A stretch of DNA of 58,325 bases from Anaerolineales bacterium (GTDB lineage: Bacteria; Chloroflexota; Anaerolineae; Anaerolineales; DRKV01), in the NCBI GenBank assembly GCA_034435695.1, contig DAOTWV010000060.1:1-58325 (forward strand), read 5' to 3'. A program made the translations under genes and the position numbers. Every line of letters starts with the position of its first letter. Position 1 is the first letter of the stretch. Below, one piece after another: positions 3,543 through 20,312 of the stretch. Under the pieces are notes generated by a model, which was given only the letters and a program-made list of their open reading frames with translations, was not told where the DNA came from and ran no database searches.

Positions 3543-3582
3543 AAGCACATTTCCGTTGTACCGTAAGCCGGACATTCTTGTC

Positions 3583-5311: not shown

Positions 5312-6076
5312 TTACAGCCCCAGGTCGGCGCGCAGTTGTGGAAGGGCAGCGCGCGCCGCCTGAACGCCGCGCTGGTAGAGCGCATCTGCCTGCGTAAAAC
5401 GCAGGTACGTCCGGCCTTCCAGGTCGGGGCGGATAAGACAATTGGCGTGTTGGTGTCCCAGGCCGGCATTTTGCACCATGCGCTCAATCGCGCTGAACAG
5501 GTATCCCCACGGCCCCCAACGGGTGCGCAATGCCGGGATGAAGATGTCCACGCCAATCACGTACTCCGCGCCGAGTTGGCGCGCCACATCCACGGGGACG
5601 CTATCCACGAAAGAACCGTCCACCAGTTCCCGCCCCTGCCAGTCCATGGGTTCGACGAAACCAGCCACCGAGCCGCTGGCGCGCACGGCGGGCAGGACGC
5701 GCCCACTGGTGAAGACCACCCGCTCTCCGCTCTTGATATCCATGGCAACGGTAGCGAAGGGTTTGGGTAAGTCTTCGAAGAGAGGGTCGCCAATGAGGTT
5801 TCCCATCCAGGTTTCCATTTTGCGGAAGGAAACCAGCCCGCGGCGCGGCCACACTGGAGAGACGAGGTGCCACCAGCGTGTGCTGCGTGCCAGGGAAAGC
5901 CCTCTCTCCAGGGGGACGCCACCCAGGTACAGTGCGCCCATGATGGCTCCCGCACTGGTGCCGGCCACCACGTCGATGGGAATGCCGGCCTCCTCAAGGA
6001 CGGAGAGCACCCCCAGGTGGGCGATACCGCGCACGACACCGCCTCCCAGCGCCAGACCAACTACCGGACGTGTCAT
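5312..6076 (-). CDS. Patatin-like phospholipase (RssA-like)
   Basis: This is the C-terminal 254 aa of track ORF 5312..6631, starting MTRPVVGLALGGGVVRGIAHLGVL. It has the oxyanion GGGxxRG motif, the GTSAG nucleophile elbow, and the DGS/DGG catalytic Asp (LVDGSFVD). The ATG at 6076 overlaps the Fe-ADH stop (ATGA). Confidence 0.88.
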   Translation of the reverse strand: MTRPVVGLALGGGVVRGIAHLGVLSVLEEAGIPIDVVAGTSAGAIMGALYLGGVPLERGLSLARSTRWWHLVSPVWPRRGLVSFRKMETWMGNLIGDPLFEDLPKPFATVAMDIKSGERVVFTSGRVLPAVRASGSVAGFVEPMDWQGRELVDGSFVDSVPVDVARQLGAEYVIGVDIFIPALRTRWGPWGYLFSAIERMVQNAGLGHQHANCLIRPDLEGRTYLRFTQADALYQRGVQAARAALPQLRADLGL

Positions 6077-7233
6077 GCGGGCTGCCCGTCGAATGCCGTG
6101 CGATACAGGGCTTCCAGTTCTTCTCGCACGGGGATGCGGCGTGAGGTGACCAGGGAGGGGTCCATCTCGGCGCGGTCGCACAAATCGGCGAGCCGTTCTT
6201 CCAGCATGGCCTGGGAAACGCCGGCTTGCTGCAGGGTAAGCGGCTGTCCCAGCGATTCGAGCAGGGTGCGGATGGCCGCCGCCAGCGCCATGCCGGCGCT
6301 CTCTTCGTTTTCGTGGGGCAGGCCCAGGAGGCGCGCCAGGCCGATGTAACGCCCCGCACCGCCGCGTGCAGTGTATTCGATGGTGTAGGGCAGCAGCAAG
6401 CCAGTGACGCGGCCATGCGGGATGCCAAAGAGTGCTCCGGCGCTGTGCCCCAGGGCATGCGCCAGGGCAATGTGGCTGTTGTTGATAGCCAGCCCGCCGA
6501 GGGTAGCCGCGTTGGCCATGTGGGTGCGGGCTTCCATGTCGTCGGCGCCATTGCGGTAGGCCCGCGGCAGGTAGGTGAAGACCAGTTGGGCGGATTGCAA
6601 TGCCAGGCCATCGCTGAAATCGTTGTTCCACGTGCTGGAGAAGGCCTCCACGGCGTGGGTGAGCACGTCTATGCCGGTATCTGCGGTGACCTGGGCTGGC
6701 AGATTGGCCGTGAAGGACGGGTCAATGAGTGCCAGTGCGGGCAGCAATTCGTAGGAGGCGACTTCCAGTTTGCGCACCTCGTCCGGGTCTTTGATGACTG
6801 CGGCGGTGGTCACTTCTGCGCCGGAACCAGCGGTGGTTGGAATGGTAATCAGGCGGGCTTTGGTGCCCAGTCCAAAGTGCTCGAATGGGTTTACGGCCTC
6901 CAGGGGCACATCCGGGCGCTCATAGCGGAACCAGGCGGCTTTGGCTGCATCCAGGCTGGAACCGCCGCCCAGTCCGATAACCCAATCCGGGGAGGAATCG
7001 GCCATTTGGAGGGCGCAGCGTTCCACGGTGGGGATGGATGGGTCAGGTTCCACATCGGCAAACAGGGACACCTGTAAGCCGGCTTGTTCCAGCAGGGTGC
7101 GGACGCGCTCTGCGAAACCGAGGTGTACCATGTTTTGGTCGGTGACAATCAGGGCACGGTGTCCCTGGATTTGTGTCAATTCATCCAGGGCTTCTTCACC
7201 GAAGACGATGCGAGGGCTACGGAAAAACCACAT
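6073..7233 (-). CDS. Iron-containing (group III) alcohol dehydrogenase
   Basis: Start moved to the internal ATG at 7233 (MWFFRSPRIVFGEEALDEL), which has an AAGGAG RBS 8 nt upstream. Fe-ADH signatures present: GLGGGSSLDAAKA, DTGIDVLTHAVEA, HALGHSAGALFGIPHG. Confidence 0.88.
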   Translation of the reverse strand: MWFFRSPRIVFGEEALDELTQIQGHRALIVTDQNMVHLGFAERVRTLLEQAGLQVSLFADVEPDPSIPTVERCALQMADSSPDWVIGLGGGSSLDAAKAAWFRYERPDVPLEAVNPFEHFGLGTKARLITIPTTAGSGAEVTTAAVIKDPDEVRKLEVASYELLPALALIDPSFTANLPAQVTADTGIDVLTHAVEAFSSTWNNDFSDGLALQSAQLVFTYLPRAYRNGADDMEARTHMANAATLGGLAINNSHIALAHALGHSAGALFGIPHGRVTGLLLPYTIEYTARGGAGRYIGLARLLGLPHENEESAGMALAAAIRTLLESLGQPLTLQQAGVSQAMLEERLADLCDRAEMDPSLVTSRRIPVREELEALYRTAFDGQPA

Positions 7234-7301
7234 GAGGGCACTCCTTTTGTCTCGTGGTAGAATGGTGGGGCGAGGAAAGACATATAGCAAAAGAAAACAG
7301 C

Positions 7302-8573
7302 ATGGACGAACTCAAAAAAACAGCCCTGGTGCTGGCGGGCGGCGGCCTGACCGGCGCGGTGTATGAAATTGGTGCGCTACGCGCCATCAATGACCTGTTG
7401 ATTGACCGCACGGTCAATGATTTCGATATTTTCGTGGGCACCAGCGCCGGTGCGCTGGTGGGGGCAATGCTGGCCAACGGGATAACGCCTGAAGACATGA
7501 TGCAGGCTGTAGCCGGTTCGCACCCGGAATTGCTGCCCATTGAACGCAAGCATATTTTCAACATCAAACGCAGTGAATTGTTGCAACGCGGCCTGGCGCT
7601 GCCGAAAAAGGTGACGCGTTCCTGGTGGCGGTTTTTACGCAGCAGCGACATGACTTTTTTCGACCTGGCATGGTCTCTGCTGGATGTGCTGCCTGCCGGG
7701 TTCTATGATGGCATGGCGCTTGACCGGTACGTGCGCGAGACGCTACGGCAGCGCGGAAAATGCAATTGTTTCACGGAACTGGAAAAAGACCTCTTCATCG
7801 TGGCAACAGACCTGGATTCAGGAGACCGTGCGGTTTTCAGTCGCGAGACGCCGGATGTGCCTGTTTCTCTGGCGGTGGCGGCTTCCTCGGCTATCCCGTT
7901 GGTGTACCGCCCGGTGCGCATTGGGGAATGTGAGTACGTGGATGGCGGTTTGCGCGGGAACGCCAGTCTGGATATCGCTATCGAGGCGGGAGCCACGCTG
8001 ATTGTGTGTATCAACCCGATGGTGCCCTTCGATAATCGGGACCACCACTCCATTCCAGAAAGGATACTGATGGGGAGCCGGGGAGCGCGATACCTGAGCG
8101 AGAGCGGGATGAACTTCATTGCCAATCAGGTGACGCGCATCCTGACTCATGCCAGCATCCGATATCACGTCAAGCAATTGCGCCGCACCCACCCGGAGGT
8201 AGACATCATCCTGATTGAGCCGCGTCCGGATGACTATGAAATGTTTTTCTACAACCCGATGCGGTATTCTGCCCGACTGGAGATTGCGCGTTACGGCTTT
8301 GAATCGGCGACGGTGGGGCTGGCGGAGGAATACGCGTTGTACAAGGCTACGCTGGCACGCCACGGCATTCCCATTACGCGCCGGCTGGTCATCCAGGAAC
8401 TGGCAGCCCTGGAAGAGGTAGAGGACGGAGAGGCACGCCGCGAGGTGTTACGGCGTATTCTCGAAGCCCGCAAGGTAACCTACCAGCACCGGGAGGGCAA
8501 CCCGCTGTGGCAGTTGCAGCGCACCCTGACGGAGTTGGAATACCTGCTGGCCGATTCCAGCGGGTCAGAGTAA
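7302..8573 (+). CDS. Patatin-like phospholipase with a long C-terminal extension
   Basis: Start at the internal ATG 7302 (MDELKKTALVLAGGGLTGAVYEIGAL). It has GGGxxG, GTSAG and VDGGLRGN motifs. An extended -10 TGGTAGAAT lies at about 7254-7262. The 3' end overlaps the convergent SCP2 gene by 9 nt. Confidence 0.85.
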   Translation: MDELKKTALVLAGGGLTGAVYEIGALRAINDLLIDRTVNDFDIFVGTSAGALVGAMLANGITPEDMMQAVAGSHPELLPIERKHIFNIKRSELLQRGLALPKKVTRSWWRFLRSSDMTFFDLAWSLLDVLPAGFYDGMALDRYVRETLRQRGKCNCFTELEKDLFIVATDLDSGDRAVFSRETPDVPVSLAVAASSAIPLVYRPVRIGECEYVDGGLRGNASLDIAIEAGATLIVCINPMVPFDNRDHHSIPERILMGSRGARYLSESGMNFIANQVTRILTHASIRYHVKQLRRTHPEVDIILIEPRPDDYEMFFYNPMRYSARLEIARYGFESATVGLAEEYALYKATLARHGIPITRRLVIQELAALEEVEDGEARREVLRRILEARKVTYQHREGNPLWQLQRTLTELEYLLADSSGSE

Positions 8574-8966
8574 TTTTGCGCTTATCTCAGGGTAGAGTTT
8601 GCGTCCCTGGGTGAAGATATCCCCCAGGGCGGTAGCCTTCCAGATGGGGCCGCGCACGTGCACCTGACGGCGTGCCAGGGCCTCCTTGAGGGAAAGTTCG
8701 TCCAGCAGGATGCGATGCAGGGTTTCGGCTTGCAGGCGCACATCCAGGTCGGGACGCAGTTTTTTCTGGTTGCCGTAGTGCACCTGTACAGGGGGCATGC
8801 GGCCGTCAATCAGAACGGTGGCTTGCGGGGCAGTGGTTTCCAGGCGGATGACCAGACGGGAGCGCGTCAGGGCATCCAACGCGTTGCCGTTCTGGTGTTG
8901 CAGGGTCTCGAAGAGGTGCTGCAGCACGGTGTACAGGTGGGTATCATCGCGGTAGGGGGAGGACAT
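8565..8966 (-). CDS. SCP2 sterol/lipid-carrier domain protein
   Basis: 133 aa, last gene of the minus-strand operon, 3 nt after the acyltransferase stop. SCP2-like layout: VIRLETT...VLIDG...V....D..L.A.TLHRILLDELSLKEALARRQVHVRGP. Confidence 0.7.
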   Translation of the reverse strand: MSSPYRDDTHLYTVLQHLFETLQHQNGNALDALTRSRLVIRLETTAPQATVLIDGRMPPVQVHYGNQKKLRPDLDVRLQAETLHRILLDELSLKEALARRQVHVRGPIWKATALGDIFTQGRKLYPEISAKLL

Positions 8967-8969
8967 GGC

Positions 8970-10139
8970 TTATCCGAAGAATATCGAGCGGCGTTGTGAG
9001 AGGCGCTTGTAAATCATCTCCTGGACGATGTTGCGCGTCTGGTCGGTGAGTTGGGAGACCAGGACGAGGTTATCGGCAGCGTCCGGGCTGTAGCCGTCCA
9101 TGGCAAGGGGTTCTCCGAAGTCGATGTACCATTTGGTGGGCAGGGGAATCAGCCCCAGCAGCCCCAGCCAGGGCCACGTCGGGCTGATAGGGAAGTAGGG
9201 GAAACCTGTGAGTTTTGCCAGAGTTTGCGATTTGTAAAGCGAGATGTAGGTTTCCTCTGCGCCTACGACGGCTACGGGAATGATGGGGGCGCGTGCTCGC
9301 AATGCCATGCGCACAAATCCACCCCGGCCAAAGCGCGCCAGACGATACCGGTCGCGGAAGAGTTTGCCCACGCCCTTGTACCCTTCCGGGAAGACGGCCA
9401 CCAATTCATCGGCTTCCAGCAGGCGGATGCCGTTTTCTTCGTTTGCCATAGCCTGTCCCAGTTTCTCGAATGTGGCTGAGATGAAGGGCAGGGTGGGGAA
9501 CCAGTCGGCGTACAGGGTGCGCACCAGACGGCGGGCGGGGTGTTCGTTGTACACGGCCAGGCCAATCATGCTTCCGTCGAAGGGGAGTTGCCCGGAGTGG
9601 TTGGCCACCAGCAAGGCCCGGCCCTCCTCCGGGACGTTTTCCAGCCCGGTGACTTCCACGCGCCAGTACTTGTAATACAGGAACTCGAAGAAGGGGCGCA
9701 CGGCTTCCAGGAATTCCATGTCCAGGCCCCATTCATCGGTTTCATATTCGCCTGTCATGCGGCGTTTGAGGATATCCCCCTGGTATTCCAGGGTGTAGTT
9801 GAGCATGTACCAGATGCCTTTCCAGGTATCCGGGTCGAAAAGGTCTTCGTTGATAGTCTCGCGCAGACGTTCCAGGATGTTGAGTTGGAAGTCGGCAGGA
9901 AGACGGGCGATGTTTTCGCGAATCAGGTCGATGAGGGCGCGCGGGGTGAAGGGAGGCGGTGTGTAGTCGGGTTGCCGGGCACGGATGCGCTCGATGAGGT
10001 CATCCAGTTCTTTTTTCAGGTCGGCGCGAAAGGCTGCGTCGTCCTCTGGCGAGGCGGCTTCGGGTTGTTGCGAGGTATCCTGGGGGGCAGCGGCGGGTTC
10101 CTCCGTCGGTGTGGTTTGCAATTCGTCCTGTTCGTTCAT
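8970..10139 (-). CDS. PlsC/LPLAT-family acyltransferase (lysophospholipid acyltransferase-like) with an acidic N-terminal extension
   Basis: 389 aa. Motif I-like LLVANHSGQLPFDG, motif III VFPEGYKG, motif IV APIIPVAVVGAEE. Only 3 nt gaps to both neighbouring genes. Confidence 0.8.
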   Translation of the reverse strand: MNEQDELQTTPTEEPAAAPQDTSQQPEAASPEDDAAFRADLKKELDDLIERIRARQPDYTPPPFTPRALIDLIRENIARLPADFQLNILERLRETINEDLFDPDTWKGIWYMLNYTLEYQGDILKRRMTGEYETDEWGLDMEFLEAVRPFFEFLYYKYWRVEVTGLENVPEEGRALLVANHSGQLPFDGSMIGLAVYNEHPARRLVRTLYADWFPTLPFISATFEKLGQAMANEENGIRLLEADELVAVFPEGYKGVGKLFRDRYRLARFGRGGFVRMALRARAPIIPVAVVGAEETYISLYKSQTLAKLTGFPYFPISPTWPWLGLLGLIPLPTKWYIDFGEPLAMDGYSPDAADNLVLVSQLTDQTRNIVQEMIYKRLSQRRSIFFG

Positions 10140-10142
10140 CGT

Positions 10143-11195
10143 TCAGGCTCCTTTGGATTGGCGAGCGGCGTAGGTTCTGCGACGACGTTCGATGATATCG
10201 CGCAGGCGTTCTTCGTCATAAGTGCGACTGGCGGCTTCGGGCATATACCGACGCATGCGTTGCTGCCCGGCAAATTCCCGTAAGGCCTCCTCGGCAGTGT
10301 ACTGAGGCATGAAGCCCAGCACTTCGTGCATACGCTGCGTGTCGGCTACCCAGCGATAGCGCAGGTAATCCGGTTCGATGGGGAAATGCCGCGCCAACGG
10401 CCCGCCGGCACTGACAGCCCAATAGGCTGCCGGGTGCAGCACAGGGAGGGGGATTTTGCCCACAATGGCCAGTATTTTGGTCAGGGGCAAGATGCCTTCC
10501 GCTGCGACGTTGTATACGCCGGGGTAATCCTCCTGGATGGTGTGCATCAGAGCAGCGAGGACATCTTCCTGGTGGATGACTTGCATCATGGGGTCAAAGC
10601 CCAGCAAAATGGGGGCTTTGCTATCGCTCAGGAAACGTACAAGGGGGGTGTTGACATCCGGCCCAATGATTCCAGGGAAGCGCAGGATGGTGAGGGTAAT
10701 TTTCGGGTATTGGCGTCGGAAGCCGTTGAAGAAAGATTCGATTTCCAGGTTATCCCGGTTATACCCGTACTGGCGGCTGCCGTGTACGGGGCGTTCTTCG
10801 CGCAGGAAAGCAGGATTGCGCGGGGACGCGCCGTACACCCGCGTGCTGCTTTTGAAAACCACCTTGCGCACACCGGCCTCGGCGCAGGCGCCCATGAACT
10901 TCATGGTGCCGATGACGTTGTGGTCGAAGGCCGATTCGGTGCGCCGGTAACTCTCGATGAAGGCCAGGTGACACACCGTGTCCACTTTTTCCAGTTGCAG
11001 TAATTCCAGCAGGAGCGGGTTGCGGATGTCTGCCTGGATGAAGTCCAGGTTTTTGATTTCTTTTTTGGGCGGATGGGCGTCAATGCCTATCACACGCAGG
11101 CCAGGGGTATCACACAAACGCGTGGCCAGGCGGCTTCCCCACTGGTTGGCTACGCCAGTGATGAGGACGGTTTTGGGTTTTTTCTTTCGGGGCAT
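10143..11195 (-). CDS. Extended-SDR, NAD-dependent epimerase/dehydratase-family protein (atypical active site)
   Basis: 350 aa with an AGGAG RBS. N-terminal Rossmann VLITGVANQWGSRL. Epimerase-like core VVFKSSTRVYG...QYGYNRDNLE, where the expected YxxxK reads YxxxR by eye. Confidence 0.75.
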   Translation of the reverse strand: MPRKKKPKTVLITGVANQWGSRLATRLCDTPGLRVIGIDAHPPKKEIKNLDFIQADIRNPLLLELLQLEKVDTVCHLAFIESYRRTESAFDHNVIGTMKFMGACAEAGVRKVVFKSSTRVYGASPRNPAFLREERPVHGSRQYGYNRDNLEIESFFNGFRRQYPKITLTILRFPGIIGPDVNTPLVRFLSDSKAPILLGFDPMMQVIHQEDVLAALMHTIQEDYPGVYNVAAEGILPLTKILAIVGKIPLPVLHPAAYWAVSAGGPLARHFPIEPDYLRYRWVADTQRMHEVLGFMPQYTAEEALREFAGQQRMRRYMPEAASRTYDEERLRDIIERRRRTYAARQSKGA

Positions 11196-11223
11196 GGTGA
11201 CTCCTGAAGACTGGAAGGGCAGG

Positions 11224-13404
11224 TTACTTTTTGCGGCGGAACAAGAGGAAGAGGCTCAAGAGGGCAAAACCGGCGGTCAGCCAGGCCCAGGTGCTTTCTT
11301 CGTCTCTGCGGCGGACGCCTTTGGCGGCTGGCGGAAGTTTGGCCAATTTTTGGGCAGCCTCAGCCTGGAAGCGGGCGAAACGTTCAGGGTCATTGCGCAG
11401 CGCATCGGCCAGGGCGCGTTTTTCGGCGACGAAGTCATCGGTGACGTAGCGTCCAAAGGAACGAAGCCCGGCAATCTGGAACTGGTGTTTTTTGAAGAGT
11501 TTGTAGATTTCCTTGACTTTTTCGATGGAGATGTTGCGTCCCAGCGTGTAATCTTCGAAGCGCCCTTCCATTGCCAGGAGGGCCGTTTCTGCCAGGCAAG
11601 CATAGGCTGTCTTGGGCGGCAGGCCGATGTCGTAGCCAAAGTCGATATCGCCGGGAATCAAGACTTCTCCGCTTTCGATGACGAGTACATCCGGGCGCAG
11701 GGCGGCTTCTTCCTCGCTGATATCGGGGGGGCGGGCTACATCGCAGATGACAGCCCCTGGTTTGCAGCGGGTGATGTCAATCACGCGTTGACCAAAGGCC
11801 GATGTGGTGGTAACAATCAAATCACAATCGCCGACGACTTCGTCGGTGCGGGTGGCGATGGTAACGTGTGCCTGAGGGGTTTCTTCCAGAATGCGGCGTT
11901 TCAAGTCTATCAATTTGGCGGGGTTGGGCGCTACCAGAACGACATCGTAAATGGCTTGTGCCAGCAGGCGGGAGCACACCGCCCCAATGGAGCCGGTTGC
12001 GCCCACGACCATGGCTTTGCCTTTGGTCAGGTCTTGCGCGCCCATCTTGATTACCGCCTGTTTGGCGGCTTCAAGCGTGGCGGCCACTGTCAGACTGTTG
12101 CCGCTGGTAATGGCGATATCGGCTTCGTGCGCCACGGTGATGCCGGCATCTCCCACGACGCTGGTGAATGCTCCCAGCCCCATGATGCGCGCTCCCAGGC
12201 GTTCAGCCATACGGGCAGCCTGATTGAGTTTCCGATAGGTGAAATGTTCGCTGTGGCGCATCATCTGGCGCGGGGTAGCGCCCAGGGAAATCAAATGCCC
12301 TTCGATTTTTTGCCCCGTGGTGGGAGATTGCCCGCCGGTGATACGCGAGATGTAGATGGGCGGAATGTAGGCCGCGATGGTCTCGACGAGTGCATCGGGC
12401 AGGTACCGCGTCCACCGGAACCACTTGTGCTTGTGGATGAATTCTACGTTGAGGGGGTGGATGACGAAGGCGAAGCGGTTGATTTCGGCTTCGTCAGGTT
12501 GCAAAAAGTGAATTACCGGCTGCCACTCGAGGTCGGCGACCATATCCAGGTACGTGTTTTCGGTCAGCGGTTGGGATTCATCGTGGCGCAAAGCCACGAG
12601 GACAGCCTCTACCATGGCCGCGGAACGATGGTCCAAATCCCCATCCGATTCGAGTTTGGGAATGAGGTTGACCACAATGGAGACCCCGCGCTGGCGCAAG
12701 TCGTCCAGGTCTTCGGCGCTTGCCCATTCGGTGACCACAATTTTGCGTTTGAGTCTGGCAGGGGCGTAACGGCGGATAGCGCCAATGTCTCCCGCGAGCA
12801 CATCTGCCCAAAGGAATGGCTTTTCGCTGCGCGGTGTCCCAGGGTTTCCCGCCTGGGGCGTGATGCGCCGGAAAGGAGCCTCGTTGAGTTGTTCCAGGGT
12901 AGGGAGAGCGATGCGTGAAGCCAGGTTGGGGGAGGTGAACAGTGGAAAATCGGGTAAAGCGAAATACACAACAGGGTCGGCGTAGCGAATGTCCTCGGTG
13001 TAGCGCCGCATTCCTTTTACCAAACTCTGATGGTTGAGGCCGGGAACCATCAGAACGCGCTTTTTGCTGAACAAACCAGGCTGGGCGCGCTCTGCGAGGA
13101 TGAGGCTCCAACTCTCCAGGCTGTGACGCACCCCATGTCCGTCCACCACCGGGGTGTTGGGGGCCGCCTCAGGAAAGGTACTACCTGTTTTGTGATACAT
13201 GCGATAGCCGGCCAGGTTGAGTTCTGCCGGGTACCCTTCCAGGCCGATAGCGTCCACCTGCCCATCGTGTTCCTGCAACAGGGCACGGACGCGTTCGGGG
13301 TCTCCCCCAGCCCCAACCCTGCGTACATGAATTTCTTCTCCCAGAATGCGGGCAACGGTTTGCTCTTCTCCCTCACCCAGGTGTACAATCAGAACTTTCT
13401 TCAT
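11224..13404 (-). CDS. Tripartite fusion: uncharacterised N-terminal domain (about 330 aa), long-chain acyl-ACP reductase (AAR)-like dehydrogenase domain, and a C-terminal TM anchor
   Basis: 726 aa. The C-terminal half aligns by eye with cyanobacterial acyl-ACP reductase: [37 protein letters not shown] (Rossmann), [35 protein letters not shown] (Cys at the position of the AAR catalytic Cys). The tail [21 protein letters not shown] is a TM anchor. GAGG RBS. Confidence 0.7.
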
Positions 13405-13419
13405 GATGGCCTCGGTTTT

Positions 13420-13851
13420 TCACTTCAATGCCAGGTGTCCATACCCTTTTTCTCGCAAGAGTGCCGGATATCGTTTGTACAAAGGTTGCACGGCGGGGAG
13501 CAACTTGAGAATTTTAGGGATTGGGCCTTCGGCGATGATGTCTTTTTTGGCCAACGCCCCCATCAAATTGACTTTGCCATGCCAGAATGCGTGTGCAATG
13601 TCGGCCTTCATGCGCATCACTACGTCAGGTTTGAGGTCGCAGTCTCCGTGAATAACATCCACATAAGCGCCAGGCTGCGTGGGTTTGCTGCGCGCATTGA
13701 TGGTCGTCATGGCCTCTGGTTCGGTATAGCGAAACTGGATGACGATACCCGATTTCCCGATTTTCCCCCCCACCTTGGGGTCCATCTTAGCCTCATCCAT
13801 CAAGGCACCGACGCAATCGTAAAACTCCTGGGATGTTTTGAAAACGGACAT
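13420..13851 (-). CDS. SCP2 lipid-carrier domain protein (first gene of the operon)
   Basis: The internal ATG at 13851 of track ORF 13420..14028 gives MSVFKTSQEFYDCVGALMDEAK...GIVIQFRYTEPEAMTTINA...MRMKADIAHAFWHGKVNLMGALAKKDIIAEGP (SCP2-like). GAGGAG RBS 7 nt upstream. Confidence 0.7.
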   Translation of the reverse strand: MSVFKTSQEFYDCVGALMDEAKMDPKVGGKIGKSGIVIQFRYTEPEAMTTINARSKPTQPGAYVDVIHGDCDLKPDVVMRMKADIAHAFWHGKVNLMGALAKKDIIAEGPIPKILKLLPAVQPLYKRYPALLREKGYGHLALK

Positions 13852-13911
13852 GACACGCTCCTCTGTGTGTTGAAAAAGCCTGCAAAGAAAGTTGTACGGA
13901 CGTATAAAGGT

Positions 13912-13940
13912 AGTATAGTCACCTTGCTGCATCGCGTCAA
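13912..13940 (-). promoter_or_regulatory. Sigma-70-type promoter of the SCP2/AAR-like/SDR/acyltransferase/SCP2 operon
   Basis: The minus strand reads TTGACG (13940-13935), a 17-nt spacer, then TATACT (13917-12), about 60 nt upstream of the SCP2 ATG. It is back-to-back with an extended -10 TGGTACAAT (13962-13970) for dsbA on the plus strand. Confidence 0.5.
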
Positions 13941-14007
13941 GCAGAGAAATGGGTGCACTCTGGTACAATTGGGCGAAATCCCCATCGCATTTACGGAGAA
14001 GAATTTC

Positions 14008-14850
14008 ATGGACATGCAACCAGAACAAGAAGAACTGAAATCCCCCGAAACAACCGAACAGAGCATCTCCCCGAAAGAATCAGAGTCCTCCCCTGTGTTG
14101 AGCATCCAACTGTATTCGTGGGCGACCCCCATAGTTGCCCTCGTCGCCCTGGTGGTAGGGTTGCTGGGAGGCTATTTTTTGCGCCCCGTGATTAGCGGCG
14201 AGAAAAGCGCGCCTGTGGCGGCTGGCACCGTTGCCACCGCAGAACCCATAGACCCGCAAGCCGCGTTACCAGCTACACCTCCGGAAGACCTGGAAGCCCG
14301 CCGTAAGGCGCTCATGGACGCGCTGCTTGCACAAACCAAGCACTTCAAAGGCAATCCGGATGCGCCAGTTACGATTCTGGAGTTCAGTGATTTTCAGTGC
14401 CCATACTGCGGGCGCTTTTTCGCTGAAGTGGAACCACAAATCAATCAACAGTACATCGAGAACGGACAGGTGCGCATGGGGTACATCCACTTTGCCTTTC
14501 TGGGACAGGAGTCTCTGTGGGCGGCTGAGGCCAGCGAGTGCGCTGCCGACCAGGATGCCTTTTGGGAGTTTCACGATAAACTTTTCAACAGCCAAAACGG
14601 CGAAAATCGTGGCGCGTTCAGCAAGGATAACCTGAAGAAATTTGCCGCAGAGTTAGGACTGGATACGGATACCTTCAACCAGTGCCTGGATGGCGGCAAG
14701 TACAGCGCCTACGTTCAGTCACAAGTAAACGTGGGGCGACAGATTGGTGTGCAAAGCACCCCCACGTTTCTTGTCAATGGACAGGCTGTCGTCGGTGCAC
14801 AGCCATTCAGTGCTTTTCAGCAGGCTATCGAGAACAGTCTTGGGCAGTAG
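14008..14850 (+). CDS. DsbA-family thiol:disulfide oxidoreductase, membrane-anchored
   Basis: This is the C-terminal 280 aa of track ORF 13030..14850, with the ATG at 14008 after a GGAGAAG RBS. It has a TM segment (WATPIVALVALVVGLLGGYF) and a thioredoxin-fold CPYC motif (FSDFQCPYCGRF). Confidence 0.85.
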   Translation: MDMQPEQEELKSPETTEQSISPKESESSPVLSIQLYSWATPIVALVALVVGLLGGYFLRPVISGEKSAPVAAGTVATAEPIDPQAALPATPPEDLEARRKALMDALLAQTKHFKGNPDAPVTILEFSDFQCPYCGRFFAEVEPQINQQYIENGQVRMGYIHFAFLGQESLWAAEASECAADQDAFWEFHDKLFNSQNGENRGAFSKDNLKKFAAELGLDTDTFNQCLDGGKYSAYVQSQVNVGRQIGVQSTPTFLVNGQAVVGAQPFSAFQQAIENSLGQ

Positions 14851-14853: not shown

Positions 14854-15474
14854 ATGAAGCAAAAGCATTTCATCGACTCGCACAAAGGCGCCACCTTTTT
14901 CTTTGTGTTGGCGTTGATTGCCTGGTACCGGCAATGGGAAAATCCCACTGCGTGGATATACCTCGCCCTGCACGGCTCTTACGGTTTCCTGTGGGTGCTG
15001 AAGAGTCGCATTTTTCCCGATAAGCAATGGGAACAGCCCGCTTCTATCTGGTATGGGCTGTACATCTGGGGTGGGCTTTCGCTTTACTGGGTGGCTCCCT
15101 GGATGTTGACTTCCCGCAGTGTACACGCGCCTGCATGGCTGCTTGGTGCGTGCGTATTCCTGTATGCCTTTGGCGTGTTCACGCACTTTAGCAGTGACAT
15201 GCAAAAGTACGTACAATTGCGCCTGAACCCCGGCCACTTGATTACGGATGGCTTTTTTGCTTATAGCCGTAATATCAATTACTTTGGGGAGTTGTTGATT
15301 TACCTTAGTTTTGCTTTGCTCCCCATGCATTGGTTGCCGGTGCTTATTCTTGTTGTGCTCATAGGCTTTGGATGGATGCCTTACATGCGTCGCAAGGAGG
15401 CCTCCATTTCTCGTTATCCTGAATTTGCGGACTACAGCCGGCGGGTGAAGAAATTCATTCCCTTTGTGTGGTAG
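14854..15474 (+). CDS. Polytopic membrane protein, ICMT/PEMT/DUF1295-like putative methyltransferase
   Basis: 206 aa, 3 nt after the dsbA stop. Multiple TM segments. The C-terminal LITDGFFAYSRNINYFGELLIY...RRKEASISRYPEFADY is typical of the isoprenylcysteine carboxyl methyltransferase / steroid-reductase-like superfamily. Confidence 0.6.
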   Translation: MKQKHFIDSHKGATFFFVLALIAWYRQWENPTAWIYLALHGSYGFLWVLKSRIFPDKQWEQPASIWYGLYIWGGLSLYWVAPWMLTSRSVHAPAWLLGACVFLYAFGVFTHFSSDMQKYVQLRLNPGHLITDGFFAYSRNINYFGELLIYLSFALLPMHWLPVLILVVLIGFGWMPYMRRKEASISRYPEFADYSRRVKKFIPFVW

Positions 15475-15568: not shown

Positions 15569-16207
15569 TCATAATTCGGCGGGTTCGCTGCGGTGAGGCA
15601 CGGCTTTGTCATCCGGGGGAGATAAAACCTTGTCCACCAGGCCGTATTCGGCAGCCTGCTGTGCGCTCATGTAGAAATCGCGTTCGGTGTCCCGCTCGAT
15701 GACCTCAATGCTTTGTCCAGTATGGAAAGAGAGAATTTCGTTCAAGCGGGCCTTGAGGCGCAAAATTTCGCGTGCCTGGATTTCGATGTCGGATGCCTGT
15801 CCCTGTGCGCCGCCCAAAGGCTGGTGCATGTGGATGGTGGCATGCGGCAGGGCAAAGCGACGCCCTTTGGTGCCGGCGGTCAGGAGAACGGTGCCAAACG
15901 AAGCGGTCACACCCACGGCAACTGTGCTGATGGGGTTGCTGAGCATTTGCATAGTATCGTAAATCGCCATGCCTGCATAGACCTGTCCGCCAGGAGAATT
16001 GATGTACATCTGAATTTCACGTTCCGGGTCTTCCTGATTGAGGTATAGCAGTTGTGCCACAATCAGGTTCGCGACCTGGTCATTGATGGGGGTGCCGAGG
16101 AAGACGATGCGATTCTTCAACAGCAGCGAGTAGATATCAAACGCTCTTTCGCCGCGTCCAGTGGTTTCGATGACCATAGGCACAAGCGATTGCGGAATGT
16201 TGTTCAT
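15569..16207 (-). CDS. clpP: ATP-dependent Clp protease proteolytic subunit
   Basis: The internal ATG at 16207 has a GGAAGGAAG RBS and gives [38 protein letters not shown]...YINSPGG...TASFG...HMHQP. The Ser/His/Asp triad context is present. Confidence 0.95.
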
Positions 16208-16351
16208 AGTACTTCCTTCCCTTCTCAGTGGATGACGGAAATCGTCCGGGTAACGATGGTGGCTTGAAACAGCCACCTGTATTTTACCCGCAATCTAAAG
16301 GGTTCTGGTGTTGGAGTTTCGTTAGATGTTGCCTTTTGTGGCTGGAGACGT

Positions 16352-16383
16352 AAAAAAAGGCGGCCTGGAGAACAGACCGCCTT
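16352..16383 (-). terminator. Intrinsic terminator downstream of tig
   Basis: The minus-strand RNA reads AAGGCGG-13 nt-CCGCCUU followed by UUUUUUU (A-run 16352-16358 on the plus strand), 24 nt after the tig stop. Confidence 0.7.
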
Positions 16384-16406
16384 TGGAAGGTTCACCGGGA
16401 ATTTTT

Positions 16407-17864
16407 TTATTCTTCTGCGGTGGTTTCTTCTTCAGCCGCGGGGGCGGCTTCTTCGGAGGTGCTTTCCTCTTCCGATGGCGCTTCTTCAGGGGCGGCTTCT
16501 TCAGCCGTCTCTGTTTCGCTTTGCGGCTCCTCGGCCTTGCCCTGAGCGATTTCGCTCAAGCGGGCGGTCGCTTTGTCGGTTACCAAATCCATCATGACCG
16601 AACTGACCAGTTCGTTGATGGCCTGTCGGTTTTTGAGCAATTTGCGAAATTCTTTTTCCGGCATGCGATTGGCGAGGGTATCCAACACAGCCAGGGTACC
16701 GTTTTGCACTTCTTCTTCACTGGGCTCGATTTTTTCTTCTTCAGCGAGTTGGTAGACTACCAGAGAACGGCGTACCCGGTATTCTGCGGCATCACGCAAT
16801 TCCGCATTGAACTCCTCTTCATTTTGTTCTTTGATTTTCAGGTACGTTTCCAGTGAAATGCCCTGTTGCGCAAGGTTGCTGGTAAAGTCCTCGCGCAGTT
16901 CCTCCAGTTCTCTCTCCAGGGCTACCGGCGGATATTTGATTTCGGACTGCTCGACCAGGGCATCCAGCGCCTGATTTGCGTATTCCTTATCGTATTCTGC
17001 GCGCTTGGACTCTTCCAACATGGTGCGCACTTCAGCACGCAAGTCATCCATGGTTTCGAAATCGCCCACGGATTGTGCGAATTCATCGTCCAGTTCGGGA
17101 AGTTCCCGCTCGGTGACTTTTTCCACTTTGATGTGGAAACGTGCCTTGACGCCCTGGAACATCTCGCTTTCGAAATCTTCGGGGAATTCGTGTTCGACTT
17201 CTTTTTCCTCACCCGTGGACATGCCCACCACCAGACGCGAAAAACCAGGGAATGGCCACTCGTGTTTGGTGTCTGCGTCTTCCGGCTCCACAAGTACCGG
17301 CACGTGACGGTCGGTGAGCAGGGCTTTTTCTTCACCCTCAGCAGCATCCAGGCGTTCTGCATTCAGGGTGATGTGCACCATGTCCCCATCTTGCGCCGGG
17401 CGGTCAACGGTGATGACCGTAGCCTGCCGTTGTCGCAACATCTCGATGAATTCGTCCACCTCTGCATCCGTGATTTCTTCATATTCGTAGGGCAGGCGCA
17501 GGGATTTGTAATCTCCCAGGGTGACTTCAGGCACCAATGGGACGGTGAAAACCAGTTTGAGCGGTTTGAGGTTGACGATATCCTCCAGTTTGCCTGGAGC
17601 AGCCGGTTCCACCTCGGCTTCGTCCAGCGCTTTAGGGTAGATTTCGTCAATCAGGATATCGATGGCCTTTTCAATGATGGCAGCCTCTCCCACCTGGCGG
17701 GCGACCACATCGTAGGGGGCTTTGCCCGGGCGGAAGCCAGGGATTTTGGTTTTGCGCGCGATATCGCGTGCAGCACGGCGCTGGGCACGTTCAAAGGTTT
17801 TGTCTTCGACCTCAATGGTCAGCGTTACCTGATGGTCTTCGGTGTATTTCTTTTCGAGTTTCAA
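16407..17864 (-). CDS. tig: Trigger factor
   Basis: The true start is most likely TTG at 17864 (caa at 17862-17864), preceded by GAAGGAAGTGGAG. The product (M)KLEKKYTEDHQVTLTIEVEDKTFERAQRRAARDIARKTKIPGFRPGKAPYDVV matches the trigger-factor N-terminus. It has an acidic low-complexity C-tail. The track ORF extends spuriously to 18089, across the tRNA. Confidence 0.9.
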   Translation of the reverse strand: MKLEKKYTEDHQVTLTIEVEDKTFERAQRRAARDIARKTKIPGFRPGKAPYDVVARQVGEAAIIEKAIDILIDEIYPKALDEAEVEPAAPGKLEDIVNLKPLKLVFTVPLVPEVTLGDYKSLRLPYEYEEITDAEVDEFIEMLRQRQATVITVDRPAQDGDMVHITLNAERLDAAEGEEKALLTDRHVPVLVEPEDADTKHEWPFPGFSRLVVGMSTGEEKEVEHEFPEDFESEMFQGVKARFHIKVEKVTERELPELDDEFAQSVGDFETMDDLRAEVRTMLEESKRAEYDKEYANQALDALVEQSEIKYPPVALERELEELREDFTSNLAQQGISLETYLKIKEQNEEEFNAELRDAAEYRVRRSLVVYQLAEEEKIEPSEEEVQNGTLAVLDTLANRMPEKEFRKLLKNRQAINELVSSVMMDLVTDKATARLSEIAQGKAEEPQSETETAEEAAPEEAPSEEESTSEEAAPAAEEETTAEE

Positions 17865-17901
17865 GGCTCCACTTCCTTCAATATAATAAAATTCATACAA
17901 C

Positions 17902-17925
17902 AGGGGCGACTGGGTTGCCGCCCCT
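17902..17925 (-). terminator. Hairpin downstream of tRNA-Leu (possible terminator)
   Basis: The minus strand reads AGGGGCG-10 nt-CGCCCCU followed by the U-rich GUUGUAUGAAUUUUAUUAU. Confidence 0.35.
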
Positions 17926-17956
17926 GAATACTCACAGGAGGTTGTTGTCAACACAA

Positions 17957-18038
17957 TGAGGAAGGAGGGACTCGAACCCTCACGCCTTACGGCACGTGAT
18001 CCTAAGTCACGCCTGTCTGCCAGTTCCAGCACTTCCCC
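17957..18038 (-). tRNA. tRNA-Leu, anticodon UAG
   Basis: The reverse complement folds as a class II tRNA: acceptor GGGGAAG/CTTCCTC, D-arm CTG-GAACTGGCAGA-CAG, anticodon stem CGTGA/TCACG with loop CTTAGGA (anticodon TAG, G37), long variable arm TGCCGTAAGGCGT, T-arm GAGGG-TTCGAGT-CCCTC, discriminator A. No CCA is encoded. Confidence 0.92.
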
Positions 18039-18050
18039 AAAGCGGAAAGG

Positions 18051-18079
18051 ATTATACGCCAGGATGTTTTTTTCGTCAA
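18051..18079 (-). promoter_or_regulatory. Consensus-like promoter for tRNA-Leu
   Basis: The minus strand reads TTGACG (18079-18074), a 17-nt spacer, then TATAAT (18056-18051), ending 12 nt upstream of the mature tRNA 5' end. Confidence 0.65.
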
Positions 18080-18205
18080 ACAATCGCACTGGCGGGCAGC
18101 ACTTCCAGATATGGGCTAATTCATCCGCAGATGGCGCAGATTACGCAGAGGAAAGAAGAAAAAATCCGTTCAATCTGCGGATACTACGCGGCAAATTTTC
18201 CGGGC

Positions 18206-18234
18206 TTGCGTTCCCCCTCATTTACGACTAGAAT
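18206..18234 (+). promoter_or_regulatory. trmD promoter with leaderless geometry
   Basis: TTGCGT (18206-11), a 17-nt spacer, TAGAAT (18229-34), then only GAAAAC before the trmD ATG at 18241. No Shine-Dalgarno sequence. Confidence 0.5.
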
Positions 18235-18240
18235 GAAAAC

Positions 18241-18936
18241 ATGCGTTTTGACATTTTCACCCTTTTCCCCGAATCGCTGCTCTCCTATCTGGATGCCAGC
18301 ATCCTCAAGCGTGCCCGGCAACGCGGCCTGCTGGAAGTACGCCTGCACAACATTCGCCATTGGGCCATTGACCGTCATCGCATGACCGATGACCTGCCCT
18401 ATGGCGGTGGCGGGGGCATGGTCATGAAACCGGAACCCATCTTCTCTGCTGTCGAGGGGGTGTTGGGCGCGCCTCCCCCCTGCCCTGTAGTGCTGCTCAC
18501 CCCACAGGGGCGTCCATTCACCCAAAAAGTGGCTGCTGAACTGGCTGCACACCCGCGCCTGGCCTTACTCTGCGGGCATTACGAGGGAGTAGATGAGCGC
18601 GTCCGGCAGCACCTGGTAACCGATGAAATTTCTATCGGCGATTATGTGCTTACAGGAGGTGAACTGGCTGCCCTGGTTGTGGTGGATGCCGTCGCCCGCT
18701 ACCTGCCCGGCGTACTTGGCGACCCTCAGGGAGTCCACCAGGATTCTCATGCCACAGGGCTACTGGAATATCCACATTACACCCGCCCTGCCGAATTTCG
18801 CTCCTGGCGAGTTCCTGAAGTCCTGCTCTCTGGCGACCATGCCCGCATCGCTCGTTGGCGGCAGGACCAATCCCTCACGCGTACCCGCAAACGTCGCCCC
18901 GACCTGCTCGACGGACGAGCACAGAACCCTGAATGA
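18241..18936 (+). CDS. trmD: tRNA (guanine37-N1)-methyltransferase
   Basis: 231 aa. [25 protein letters not shown]...[25 protein letters not shown]...[13 protein letters not shown]...[16 protein letters not shown] is the canonical TrmD pattern. Confidence 0.95.
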
Positions 18937-18972
18937 AGAAGTGCTCTTCCCCTTTTTCCCCCCTTTTGCGCC

Positions 18973-20193
18973 ATGAACAAAAAATTCCCCTACGCCCGTA
19001 CCTTCCTCCTGGGATTTGGCTTTTTCGGCATCAGTCTCATCTGGCCTATCTTCAACAACTACGTGCCTATCTTCTTGCGGGAACTCGGTCTTTCTGCCAC
19101 AGCCGTGGGCTTCGTCATGACCTGGGACAATTACCTCAACATGTTCGTGCAGCCCATCGTGGGAGAACGTTCCGACCGCATGCACACCCGCATGGGACGC
19201 CGCAAGCCGTGGATGCTGGTAGGAGCGCCGCTGGCGGCAGTGTTTTTCGTTCTCGTCCCTGCTCTGCGTACGGTAACGGGCATCATGCTGGCCGTTTTCG
19301 CTACCAACGTGTGCATGGCGCTTTTCCGCGCACCCACCGTTGCCCTGCTGGGTGACCTTTACCCCGCTGAGCAGCGCAGCACAGCCAACGGCATCATTAA
19401 CCTGATGGGAGGCGTCGGCGCTATCCTGGCTTTTCTGGTGGGCGGCGCACTCTACAAACTGGGACGCATCCCGCCCTTTGCCTTTGGGGCGGTGGTCATG
19501 TTGATTGCCATTGGGATGGTATTGCTCTTCATCCGTGAGCCGGATGCCCCTGCCCAGAGTACCGATTCCCACGCCCAGGGGGCTTTTCTGGAGCATTTGC
19601 AGCAGGTCATCAATGCCTCAGACCGTTCAGGACTGTTGATTTTGCTGGCCATCCTGTGCTGGTTCATCGGATACAATGCCCTCGAAACCTGGATTTCTTC
19701 CTTTGGCAAGTACACCCTGGGAATTGACCCTGGCCGCATGAGCGTGCTGACCTCTGGGCTGGCACTTACCTTTGTGATTTTTGCGCTTCCCAGTGGGTTG
19801 CTGGCCACGCGCTTTGGGCGGCGGCGGGTTATCCTGGTGGGGATTACCGGCCTGACGGTGCTCTTTCTCTCTGGGCTGGTAATCAGCAACCAGAGCATGT
19901 TGATTGTCATGCTGGTGCTTTCCGGTATCTTTTGGGCGCTCATCAATGTCAATTCCCTGCCCATGGTCTACGATGTAGGGGGCGATGCCAACATTGGCGC
20001 TTTTACCGGAATGTATTACCTGGCCTCCAACATCGCCGCTGTGGGGGGGCCGCAGGTGGTAGGTATCCTCATTGACCTGAGCAATGGCAACTATCGCGTC
20101 ATGTTCATTTTCGCGGCTGCCTTTATGGCGTTGGCTGGTTTGTTGATGCTGCGGGTTCGGGAACACTCCCCTCTTCCTGCGCCCCAAACGTAA
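18973..20193 (+). CDS. MFS/GPH-type transporter
   Basis: 406 aa with about 12 predicted TM segments. It has the MFS loop motif GERSDRMHTRMGRRKPWMLVG between TM2 and TM3. The 278-aa minus-strand ORF 18760..19596 is its shadow. Confidence 0.8.
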   Translation: MNKKFPYARTFLLGFGFFGISLIWPIFNNYVPIFLRELGLSATAVGFVMTWDNYLNMFVQPIVGERSDRMHTRMGRRKPWMLVGAPLAAVFFVLVPALRTVTGIMLAVFATNVCMALFRAPTVALLGDLYPAEQRSTANGIINLMGGVGAILAFLVGGALYKLGRIPPFAFGAVVMLIAIGMVLLFIREPDAPAQSTDSHAQGAFLEHLQQVINASDRSGLLILLAILCWFIGYNALETWISSFGKYTLGIDPGRMSVLTSGLALTFVIFALPSGLLATRFGRRRVILVGITGLTVLFLSGLVISNQSMLIVMLVLSGIFWALINVNSLPMVYDVGGDANIGAFTGMYYLASNIAAVGGPQVVGILIDLSNGNYRVMFIFAAAFMALAGLLMLRVREHSPLPAPQT

Positions 20194-20232
20194 GCCTTGT
20201 ATAAGAAAAGCCCCTCAGAAAAGACCCCTGGC

Positions 20233-20261
20233 TTGACCCGCCTTGGGGCACATGGTATCAT
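20233..20261 (+). promoter_or_regulatory. hrcA-dnaK operon promoter
   Basis: TTGACC (20233-38), a 17-nt spacer, then TATCAT (20256-61) with an upstream TG (extended -10). The CIRCE element lies immediately downstream. Confidence 0.6.
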
Positions 20262-20274
20262 GGTTTGCGGGCTT

Positions 20275-20301: not shown

Positions 20302-20312
20302 AACAGGGCATC

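Follow-up and report, generated by a model that had tools for sequence, protein, structure and literature searches.

A Chloroflexota fusion of an uncharacterised alpha/beta domain with a predicted AAR/PigE-type thioester reductase and a putative C-terminal membrane tail

The superfamily that includes the acyl-acyl carrier protein (ACP) reductase (AAR) of cyanobacteria, PigE, TamH and the TAD domains of non-ribosomal peptide synthetases (NRPS) is known for making aldehydes from carrier-bound acyl chains and passing them to a partner enzyme. Such a hand-over takes place from AAR to the aldehyde-deformylating oxygenase (ADO), from the PigE reductase to its aminotransferase and, in a parallel case, from GluTR to GSAM. 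The characterised relatives of the protein described here reduce fatty-type thioesters to aldehydes via a conserved Cys (PMC8341465; PMC9594044), which has been named as the acyl-enzyme nucleophile in AAR (Cys294) and PigE (Cys296) (PMC8341465), and TamH converts C12-ACP to the C12 aldehyde (PMC9594044). In this work, we analysed an open reading frame (ORF) located at positions 11224..13404, on the minus strand, of a 58,325-nt stretch of DNA from an Anaerolineales bacterium of the phylum Chloroflexota (GenBank assembly GCA_034435695.1, contig DAOTWV010000060.1), hereafter referred to as the window. The encoded protein of 726 aa combines an N-terminal partner domain (N-domain), an AAR/PigE-type thioester reductase domain and a predicted tail anchor.

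The fusion protein and its reductase domain

The ORF consists of 726 codons and starts with an ATG, with a GAGG sequence 6 nt 5' of it, and the full-length homologues of the protein share the same start Met and can be aligned with it end to end. It is a real, highly conserved enzyme gene of the Chloroflexota. The long ORF that runs opposite to it (10978..12918, plus strand, 646 aa) is an antisense shadow, as is common in DNA of 58% G+C. The full-length AlphaFold model, built on 42 sequences, had a mean predicted local distance difference test value (pLDDT) of 87 and a predicted template modelling score (pTM) of 0.79. In this model, an alpha/beta domain (residues 1-~305) is followed by a linker of ~8 residues, a second alpha/beta domain (308-655), two helices (656-689), a disordered segment (690-704) and a terminal helix (705-725).

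An initial annotation of this DNA, made from the sequence without database searches, suggested that residues ~330-650 resemble AAR, and this is borne out by phmmer, by NCBIfam and by Foldseek with the AlphaFold model. However, the boundary that it placed at residue 330 lies at ~308: the FAFVIHPL sequence (311-318) forms the first strand of the reductase fold, and the unfused reductases begin exactly there. In a phmmer search against all PDB sequences, the best match to the reductase domain (residues 308-655; 11440..12483, minus strand) was PigE (4ppm; E 9.7e-32, residues 362-657), followed by Synechococcus AAR (6jzq; E 1.1e-16, residues 347-647), with the carmabin TAD domain at E 5e-4. The NCBIfam model for PigE (NF053554) was matched with an E value of 5.7e-57 over model positions 45-356, the whole-protein score of 193.7 bits not reaching the cut-off of 850, and the model for AAR (TIGR04058) with an E value of 4.5e-23 and 82.1 bits, which failed the family cut-off of 449.7. 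Weak but consistent matches to GluTR models were also obtained with NCBIfam. Foldseek ranked AAR structures first (E ~1e-18; TM scores of 0.74-0.79, normalised to AAR; 24-25% identity), and the carmabin TAD domain came after them (TM ~0.7). Neither a class-III pyridoxal phosphate (PLP) aminotransferase domain nor NRPS domains were found in the fusion protein with Pfam and NCBIfam.

All five sequence blocks quoted in the initial annotation as matching AAR align with it in phmmer, and formal alignment also placed a Cys where it had been expected. Cys603 (codon 11596..11598, minus strand) shares a column with AAR Cys294 and PigE Cys296 and is the predicted acyl-enzyme nucleophile. The dinucleotide-binding motif GATGSIG (G468-G474; 11983..12003, minus strand) aligns with the GATGDIG of AAR (VVGATGDIG). 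Neither Cys603 nor GATGSIG varied among 20 close homologues and five stand-alone relatives. Residues 308-655 correspond to an AAR-superfamily reductase domain, and we consider thioester reductase chemistry highly probable. As judged from the alignment scores, this domain is nearer to the reductase domains of PigE and TamH than to cyanobacterial AAR.

The common fold, Cys and nucleotide motif would be compatible with a genuine AAR orthologue of alkane biosynthesis, the ADO being encoded elsewhere. However, the score against TIGR04058 (82 bits vs 450), the 24-25% identity and the closer relationship to PigE argue against this explanation. The initial annotation had already reasoned from the lack of a nearby ADO gene that alkane synthesis was not involved, and we agree: a Pfam scan of 24 ORFs between 0 and 28 kb, four of which matched no Pfam family, revealed no ADO (PF11266), with several smaller ORFs of this region and 28-58 kb outside the scan. 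Moreover, the partner encoded in genomes with an unfused reductase is the N-domain protein. With the cut-off failed, no ADO among the scanned ORFs and a different obligate partner, AAR orthology is effectively refuted, and we consider it very improbable. The occurrence of an AAR-like domain outside cyanobacteria, initially presented as a novelty, had precedents in PigE (PMC8341465), TamH (PMC9594044) and TAD (bioRxiv 10.1101/2024.10.28.620694). Two other candidate relatives were rejected, TabE of Streptomyces because it is an aldehyde dehydrogenase-type enzyme, and the haloarchaeal wax-ester reductase because it is an unrelated reductase.

All that a plasmid-wide tblastn search (H1-H25) retrieved were PigE-like reductase-aminotransferase fusions, which are common on proteobacterial replicons and occur on large replicons of Ralstonia solanacearum (128 records), Thioclava, Leisingera, Methylocystis and Pseudoalteromonas. 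Many of the Ralstonia plasmid records carry no annotated feature under the match. The N-domain was not found in this plasmid-wide search.

The reductase domain is followed by two helices (656-671 and 673-689; 11338..11439, minus strand), which are only partly present in the Firmicutes stand-alone reductases, and by a flexible linker (residues 690-704; 11293..11337, minus strand). The linker contains a conserved P-x-x-A-K-G-V sequence (P691, A694, K695, G696 and V697 conserved in 20 close homologues), and pLDDT values fall below 50 at residues 696-706. The C-terminal anchor (residues 705-726; 11227..11292, minus strand) consists of the hydrophobic stretch W706-F722, preceded by RRRDEES, and a terminal RRKK. 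The 17 residues of this stretch form the most hydrophobic 17-19-residue window of the protein (top window 704-722). A hydrophobic tail with basic residues behind it was kept in 113 of 120 close homologues, and an [AS]KG[VI] motif was found ~10 residues ahead of the hydrophobic stretch, also in 113 of the 120. The C-terminal hydrophobic anchor noticed initially is thus supported by the modelled helix 705-725, by the hydropathy profile and by its conservation, and we read this region as a predicted tail anchor. The split Firmicutes reductases stop shortly past the catalytic domain and have no tail, and about half of the distant fusions also lack it; the tail is thus an acquisition of one lineage. 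An N-terminal signal peptide is absent: residues 2-8 form the first beta-strand of the folded domain (pLDDT 96).

A word-indexed search of 5.8 billion proteins retrieved more than 3,400 related database proteins, of which the best 120 were all full-length and 66-88% identical to the window protein. With one genome per GTDB species, relatives were confirmed in 401 stretches, mostly from Chloroflexota. The locus-level counts given below rest on the best 80 of these 401 stretches, which showed 65-84% identity and were almost all from Anaerolineae-, Caldilineae-, Ardenticatenia- or Promineifilum-type Chloroflexota; the few labelled as non-Chloroflexota may correspond to binning errors. Rather than an oddity, the fusion constitutes a core conserved Chloroflexota family, represented in at least 401 species genomes, at 65-88% identity, and in more than 3,400 database proteins. 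More distant fusions exist at 27-50% identity, and at least one of them adjoins resistance-nodulation-division (RND) efflux genes, suggesting a diderm host.

Close homologues are publicly labelled 'serine carboxypeptidase', 'predicted amino acid dehydrogenase' and, in one case, 'LPXTG-motif cell wall-anchored protein'. The mislabelled entries include P0004, P0009, P0047 and P0052 and represent a propagated mis-annotation. If these labels were correct, the protein would be a serine carboxypeptidase, a quinate/shikimate or amino-acid dehydrogenase, or a secreted surface protein anchored by sortase, and besides the database names, a sub-threshold match to PF01488 and the resemblance of the C-terminal motif-hydrophobic-basic layout to a sorting signal could be cited in their favour. 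However, neither Pfam nor NCBIfam identified a peptidase domain in the fusion protein; the PF01488 match (23.9 bits vs a cut-off of 24.3) covers only the nucleotide-binding strands of the Rossmann part, and no shikimate-binding domain was found with Pfam. The surface-protein reading of the tail was rejected, as the motif is AKGV rather than LPXTG, a signal peptide is lacking and an NAD(P)H enzyme must stay cytoplasmic. The readings based on the public labels are refuted by the domain evidence, and we give them practically no credence.

The partner domain and the split two-gene module

The N-terminal partner domain (residues 1-~305; 12490..13404, minus strand) has a two-lobed alpha/beta fold and belongs to an uncharacterised family. 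It had been described initially as an uncharacterised domain of ~330 aa; its size is ~305 aa, but its uncharacterised status stands. It gave no match in Pfam at E<=10, in Pfam searches with 50 family members or in NCBIfam, and no PDB relative was detected by single-sequence or profile search. Modelled alone with AlphaFold, with 50 diverse relatives, the domain forms two Rossmann-like lobes around a cleft (pLDDT 92, pTM 0.91). The Foldseek matches to this model were all weak (TM 0.3-0.43) and corresponded mostly to type-I periplasmic sugar-binding proteins; equally weak matches (TM ~0.4) included TAD and amino-acid dehydrogenase-type two-lobe enzymes, among them AAR itself. An origin of the N-domain by divergence from the AAR fold was considered and rejected, because a profile-profile comparison with the reductase family yielded a probability of 0.2, and no relationship is claimed.

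When 1.8 billion cluster representatives (clusters at 50% identity) were searched exhaustively with HMMER, 536 clusters were assigned to the N-domain family, including both stand-alone and fused proteins, with two length classes of ~300 aa (alone) and ~690-750 aa (reductase-fused). Among the other oversized N-domain proteins, a further fusion partner was seen only in one probable chimera, with a histidine-kinase ATPase. The N-terminal half of the window protein matched the stand-alone ~300-aa proteins over their full length (24-33% identity; E 1e-16 to 1e-35), and for members of the unfused gene pairs described below E values down to 1e-29 were obtained. These proteins, found mainly in Clostridia, are publicly named 'quinate 5-dehydrogenase' or 'hypothetical'. 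The relationship to proteins labelled as quinate/shikimate 5-dehydrogenases, which the initial annotation had offered, thus corresponds to true homology, but no domain evidence supports the name 'quinate 5-dehydrogenase'. Residues R29, D47, D88, G89, D143, D206, K221 and E266 show little or no variation among the fused and stand-alone N-domains.

We compared five genomes in which the two domains are not fused: Thermoanaerobacter, Anoxybacter, Thermincola, an 'Actinobacteria' metagenome-assembled genome (MAG) and a Baltobacteraceae (Eremiobacterota) MAG. Each of the five has the gene for the ~300-aa N-domain protein directly next to a gene for a reductase of 350-373 aa, and these reductases share with the window protein a weak Shikimate_DH signature. 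The one pair compared, the stand-alone 362-aa reductase of Thermoanaerobacter (L081) and window residues 308-655, showed 46% identity (E 3e-101). The split pair is followed by greA-lysS in the five genomes, and coaX and/or dusB are located upstream in the four loci for which upstream sequence was available.

An ORF of ~175-200 aa precedes the split pair in four of the five unfused genomes. The Firmicutes protein of ~175 aa (L081, 5472-5996; L082, 5465-5986; L088, 5459-6004) has no Pfam match, and the two such ORFs that were translated contain, as judged by eye, a helix-turn-helix (HTH)-like segment (GLSQxEVAxxxxVxRxFVSRLESLG). This protein may be a regulator of the split module. No counterpart was seen beside the Chloroflexota fusions.

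On this comparison of sequences and gene order, the window ORF is a Rosetta-stone fusion of a conserved two-gene module. The occurrence of the two halves as a fusion in Chloroflexota and as adjacent genes elsewhere is strong evidence that they work together, and the interdomain linker of ~8 residues and the pTM of 0.79 for the full-length model were also counted in favour of their coupling. We consider it very probable that the N-domain and the reductase are functionally coupled.

The N-domain has a second type of partner. In P0257 and P0390, it is fused to the C-terminus of an alpha-oxoamine synthase (BioF/Kbl/SPT type), and elsewhere an N-domain gene that stands alone (28% identity, E 4e-27) is located two genes after an alpha-oxoamine synthase gene on a further contig, with a haloacid dehalogenase (HAD) gene between them. 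The loci concerned (L084, 2309-4663, with a fusion, and L085, 8001-11142) also contain HAD phosphatase, methyltransferase and short-chain dehydrogenase/reductase (SDR) genes, and the set resembles a pathway of its own, as yet uncharacterised, for a small molecule or a lipid base. Both partner enzymes use an acyl-thioester and release a reactive carbonyl, suggesting that the N-domain may handle the carbonyl or present the acyl donor or co-substrate.

Lipid-type neighbours and a proposed function

The fusion gene is the second of five closely spaced genes on the minus strand (8565-13851), which form an operon-like run. Gaps of 3-28 nt separate the last four genes, with 28 nt between the fusion gene and the SDR gene that follows it. 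The first gene (13420..13851) encodes an SCP2-like protein of 143 aa that is below the Pfam threshold for SCP2, but is a paralogue of the SCP2 encoded by the last gene of the run (31% identity, E 3e-11). It probably starts at the ATG at 13851 rather than at the TTG at 14028, because GAGGAG lies ahead of the former and a product of 143 aa matches the length of the homologues. Downstream from the fusion gene are genes for an extended SDR of the epimerase/3beta-HSD type (10143..11195, 350 aa), a PlsC-family acyltransferase (8970..10139, 389 aa; PF01553, E 1.9e-17) with an N-terminal extension of ~150 aa, and an SCP2 lipid-transfer protein (8565..8966, 133 aa; PF02036, 24.1 bits vs a cut-off of 21.3). 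The SCP2-like and SDR genes are co-conserved in 11 of the 80 loci and the acyltransferase gene in 10, and the last-gene SCP2 is also conserved in related loci. A promoter-like site, TTGACG-17-TATACT (13912..13940, minus strand), is located ~60 nt upstream from the first gene, identified by consensus match only, and a consensus search revealed no terminator-like site on the minus strand within 8565-13851.

A convergent gene on the plus strand (7254..8573) encodes a patatin-like phospholipase, which is present at 54-61% identity in eight of the 80 loci. An iron-type alcohol dehydrogenase (Fe-ADH) gene (6073..7290, minus strand), co-conserved with the cluster, comes next, together with a second patatin ORF (5312-6631) that overlaps it and whose real start is probably near 6070. 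An Fe-ADH at 49-62% identity was found within 6 kb of the fusion gene, on either side, in six related loci (L003, L004, L009, L040, L064 and L072), and only weaker partial matches (35-39%) were found in L005. Overall, the whole lipid-type set (window 5312-13851) is kept around the fusion gene in ~10 of the 80 related loci, and three of these have the ADH-patatin pair on the opposite side, still within 6 kb.

Lipid-type genes also adjoin distant fusions. In L089, a fusion with 36% identity is followed by a patatin gene, and in L090 an acyltransferase gene begins at the last base (9136) of a fusion with 27% identity; this acyltransferase has DAGAT and PlsC-family Pfam matches and is 29% identical (E 2e-17) to that of the window. 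Lipid-gene neighbours therefore recur in three independent fusion lineages. A recurrent link with SDRs was considered and rejected, as the similarity between the window SDR and those beside the alpha-oxoamine synthase fusion of L084 and a distant fusion in L092 is only generic Rossmann similarity. Neither the context of a further distant fusion (L093) nor L091 was informative.

Next to the cluster, the ORF at 13030-14850 (plus strand, 606 aa) is a run-on in which only the 3' part (14008-14850) is real and encodes a DsbA/thioredoxin-like protein with an N-terminal membrane helix. It is directly followed by a gene for a DUF1295/steroid-5-alpha-reductase-like membrane protein (14854-15474, plus strand), a possible lipid-modifying enzyme. 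The surroundings (15569-28144 and 2376-4734) contain common housekeeping genes for ClpP, trigger factor, TrmD, a major facilitator superfamily (MFS) transporter, HrcA, DnaK, PrmA and a tetratricopeptide repeat (TPR) protein, and an acyl-CoA dehydrogenase and a secreted CAP+LysM protein are also encoded upstream. There is no sign of a mobile element or biosynthetic island in the surrounding genes.

We propose, as an evenly balanced call, that the window protein is a cytoplasmic, membrane-held two-enzyme fusion that would convert a fatty acyl thioester to an aldehyde, deliver it to the N-domain and so feed a lipid pathway. First, Cys603 would accept the acyl chain of a phosphopantetheine thioester, more likely acyl-ACP than acyl-CoA. 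The acyl-enzyme thioester would then be reduced by NAD(P)H held at the GATGSIG motif (468-474), and the aldehyde would be released. We infer these steps from AAR and PigE (PMC8341465) and from TamH (PMC9594044). The aldehyde or acyl group could be passed directly to the rigidly attached N-domain, a hand-over that we infer from the logic of the fusion, and the cleft of this domain might bind a co-substrate or acceptor, or the domain might convert the aldehyde itself. The ADH or the SDR and then the acyltransferase, aided by the SCP2 carriers, would use the product to make an ester-type component of lipids at the membrane. Because the cluster holds two SCP2 proteins, an SDR, a PlsC acyltransferase, patatins and an Fe-ADH, the substrate may be a fatty or lipid acyl chain, a claim that we would weigh about equally for and against. 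The most likely product would be a building block of membrane or neutral lipids derived from a fatty aldehyde or alcohol.

Several observations weigh against this proposal. In ~69 of the 80 Chloroflexota loci, the fusion gene has no recurrent or lipid neighbours, the Firmicutes split module is located among housekeeping genes without lipid genes, and the conservation of the fusion at 65-70% across orders would be more in keeping with a core function than with an accessory lipid. The nearest folds to the N-domain are those of ligand-binding proteins rather than enzymes, and the SLGSSxRD, TNTTT and GRSFGTN sequences of the stand-alone family are altered in the Chloroflexota fusion. After strand beta2, AAR has an Arg and the unfused reductases an Arg or Lys, whereas the window protein has a Pro and most of the fused homologues an Ile. 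As the residue at this position varies, TamH is NADH-specific (PMC9594044) and TAD is NAD-selective (bioRxiv 10.1101/2024.10.28.620694), a preference for NADH or NADPH is not callable from the sequence. Finally, a monotopic, in-plane anchor is as possible as a spanning one, since the hydrophobic stretch has only 17 residues, with basic residues at both ends.

Some of these observations would be accounted for if the N-domain were a regulatory, sensor or substrate-presenting domain rather than a catalytic one, in which case the protein would be a membrane-associated producer of fatty aldehyde or alcohol. The Foldseek neighbours of the N-domain are hinge-type ligand-binding proteins, no cofactor motif is recognisable, the altered sequences are putative active-site motifs lost in the fused form, and the separate Fe-ADH and SDR of the cluster could process the aldehyde. 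However, the near-invariant charged residues (R29, D47, D88, D143, D206, K221 and E266) look more like a reaction centre, and strict co-inheritance with two enzyme classes would be unusual for a sensor domain. We consider a non-catalytic N-domain rather unlikely.

It is also possible, although we regard it as unlikely, that the acyl group on the carrier is not of the lipid type (an aminoacyl or peptidyl thioester, for instance, or, as for GluTR, an aminoacyl-tRNA ester), or that the chemistry resembles that of TAD more than a simple reduction, the protein serving the production of a housekeeping metabolite. The PBP (periplasmic binding protein)-like N-domain would then supply a polar co-substrate, for example an amino acid or amine. 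The position of the split module beside housekeeping genes (greA-lysS, coaX and birA) across the five unfused genomes examined and the very high sequence conservation of the fusion family are consistent with this explanation, as are the weak, consistent GluTR-model matches. The similarity of the N-domain fold to sugar- and amino-acid-binding proteins and its partnership with alpha-oxoamine synthases, whose co-substrate is an amino acid, point in the same direction. Nevertheless, the order dusB-greA-lysS is common in Firmicutes, and the synteny of the split module may thus reflect inheritance and not function. The fold and the Cys mechanism are common to GluTR and TAD (PMC8341465; bioRxiv 10.1101/2024.10.28.620694), but the best-scoring characterised relatives, PigE and AAR, and by its published description TamH (PMC9594044), take fatty-type acyl chains. 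Furthermore, lipid-gene neighbours occur in three independent fusion lineages, and a membrane tail makes most sense with a hydrophobic product.

The preferred reading, an aldehyde-forming fusion that feeds a lipid pathway, has a more specific form. Alkane-1,2-diol lipids, with an acylated second hydroxyl, have been described in three Chloroflexi (Thermomicrobium, Nitrolancetus and Roseiflexus) and in Thermus (PMC3504966), and their biosynthesis was still unclarified in the genome paper of T. roseum (PMC2615216). A set comprising a reductase, an ADH or SDR and an acyltransferase is, speculatively, of the kind that a diol-lipid pathway would need. The N-domain might then be a new aldehyde-processing or acceptor-presenting family, and the cluster the missing route to lipids of Chloroflexota that lack glycerol or are based on alcohols, of the alkane-1,2-diol or wax-ester type, a suggestion that we consider doubtful. 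Wax esters are known from Chloroflexus and Roseiflexus. In a broader and also speculative form, the pair would constitute an aldehyde-channelling two-enzyme system present across Chloroflexota, Clostridia, Eremiobacterota and relatives.

Comparison with known systems

Consistent with the initial claim that such a fusion had not been described, no description of the fusion, the module, the N-domain partner or the membrane tail was found in the literature searched. The partner domain, the fusion or module itself and the membrane tail are new; AAR-like domains outside cyanobacteria and reductase-aminotransferase fusions were already known. The partner family is strictly linked to the reductase in Chloroflexota, Clostridia and Eremiobacterota and, separately, to alpha-oxoamine synthases. 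If the product of the pair were identified, thousands of genes that are now mis-annotated would gain a function, and a new domain that consumes aldehydes or presents acceptors would be defined. The Chloroflexota are abundant in activated sludge, sediments and hot springs, and their lipid chemistry, which is poorly understood, could be explained in part. The fused pair might also serve oleochemical engineering as a natural module for fatty aldehydes that is targeted to the membrane.

The ether-lipid cluster of myxobacteria (ElbD, elbB-elbE), on which Lorenzen et al. in 2014 reportedly provide further background, is comparable by analogy only: in it, a PlsC-type acyltransferase for lipid assembly is linked genetically with a reductase whose product is a fatty aldehyde or alcohol. 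ElbD (background in bioRxiv 10.64898/2026.06.23.733905) has an adenylation-ACP-fatty acyl reductase (NAD_binding_4) architecture unrelated to the AAR fold, and no homology is claimed. The TAD domains of NRPS, such as CarI (PDB 9E4S/9E4U), belong to the same superfamily and have the same fold, with an invariant Cys by the nicotinamide. However, they end NRPS modules, bind NAD rather than NADP and have a far weaker sequence relationship to the window protein than PigE and AAR, and the chemistry of TAD is itself unresolved (bioRxiv 10.1101/2024.10.28.620694).

Cyanobacterial AAR (EC 1.2.1.80; PDB 6JZQ/6JZU/6JZY) has in common with the window protein the two-subdomain fold, the Cys column and the GATGxIG motif; a ping-pong acyl-Cys mechanism is a predicted likeness, as is the passing of the aldehyde straight to a bound partner. 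However, the partner of AAR is the ferritin-like ADO, whereas that of the window protein is a fused alpha/beta domain, and the window protein has a membrane tail, occurs in non-phototrophic Chloroflexota and does not keep the Arg after beta2. PigE of prodigiosin biosynthesis, the best-scoring characterised relative, is itself fused to an aldehyde-consuming enzyme. In PigE and in TamH of tambjamine biosynthesis, this partner is a class-III PLP aminotransferase, whereas the partner in the window protein is unrelated to it and located at the opposite, N-terminal end. Furthermore, PigE and TamH are specialised-metabolism enzymes of Proteobacteria, and the window protein is encoded by a conserved core gene of the Chloroflexota. 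The unfused pairs of a 'quinate 5-dehydrogenase' and an AAR-like protein of Clostridia, Eremiobacterota and relatives differ in being split and without a tail, usually with the ~175-aa HTH protein ahead, in a housekeeping rather than a lipid setting and with several different N-domain motifs, but they comprise the same two proteins, of which the window protein is the head-to-tail fusion.

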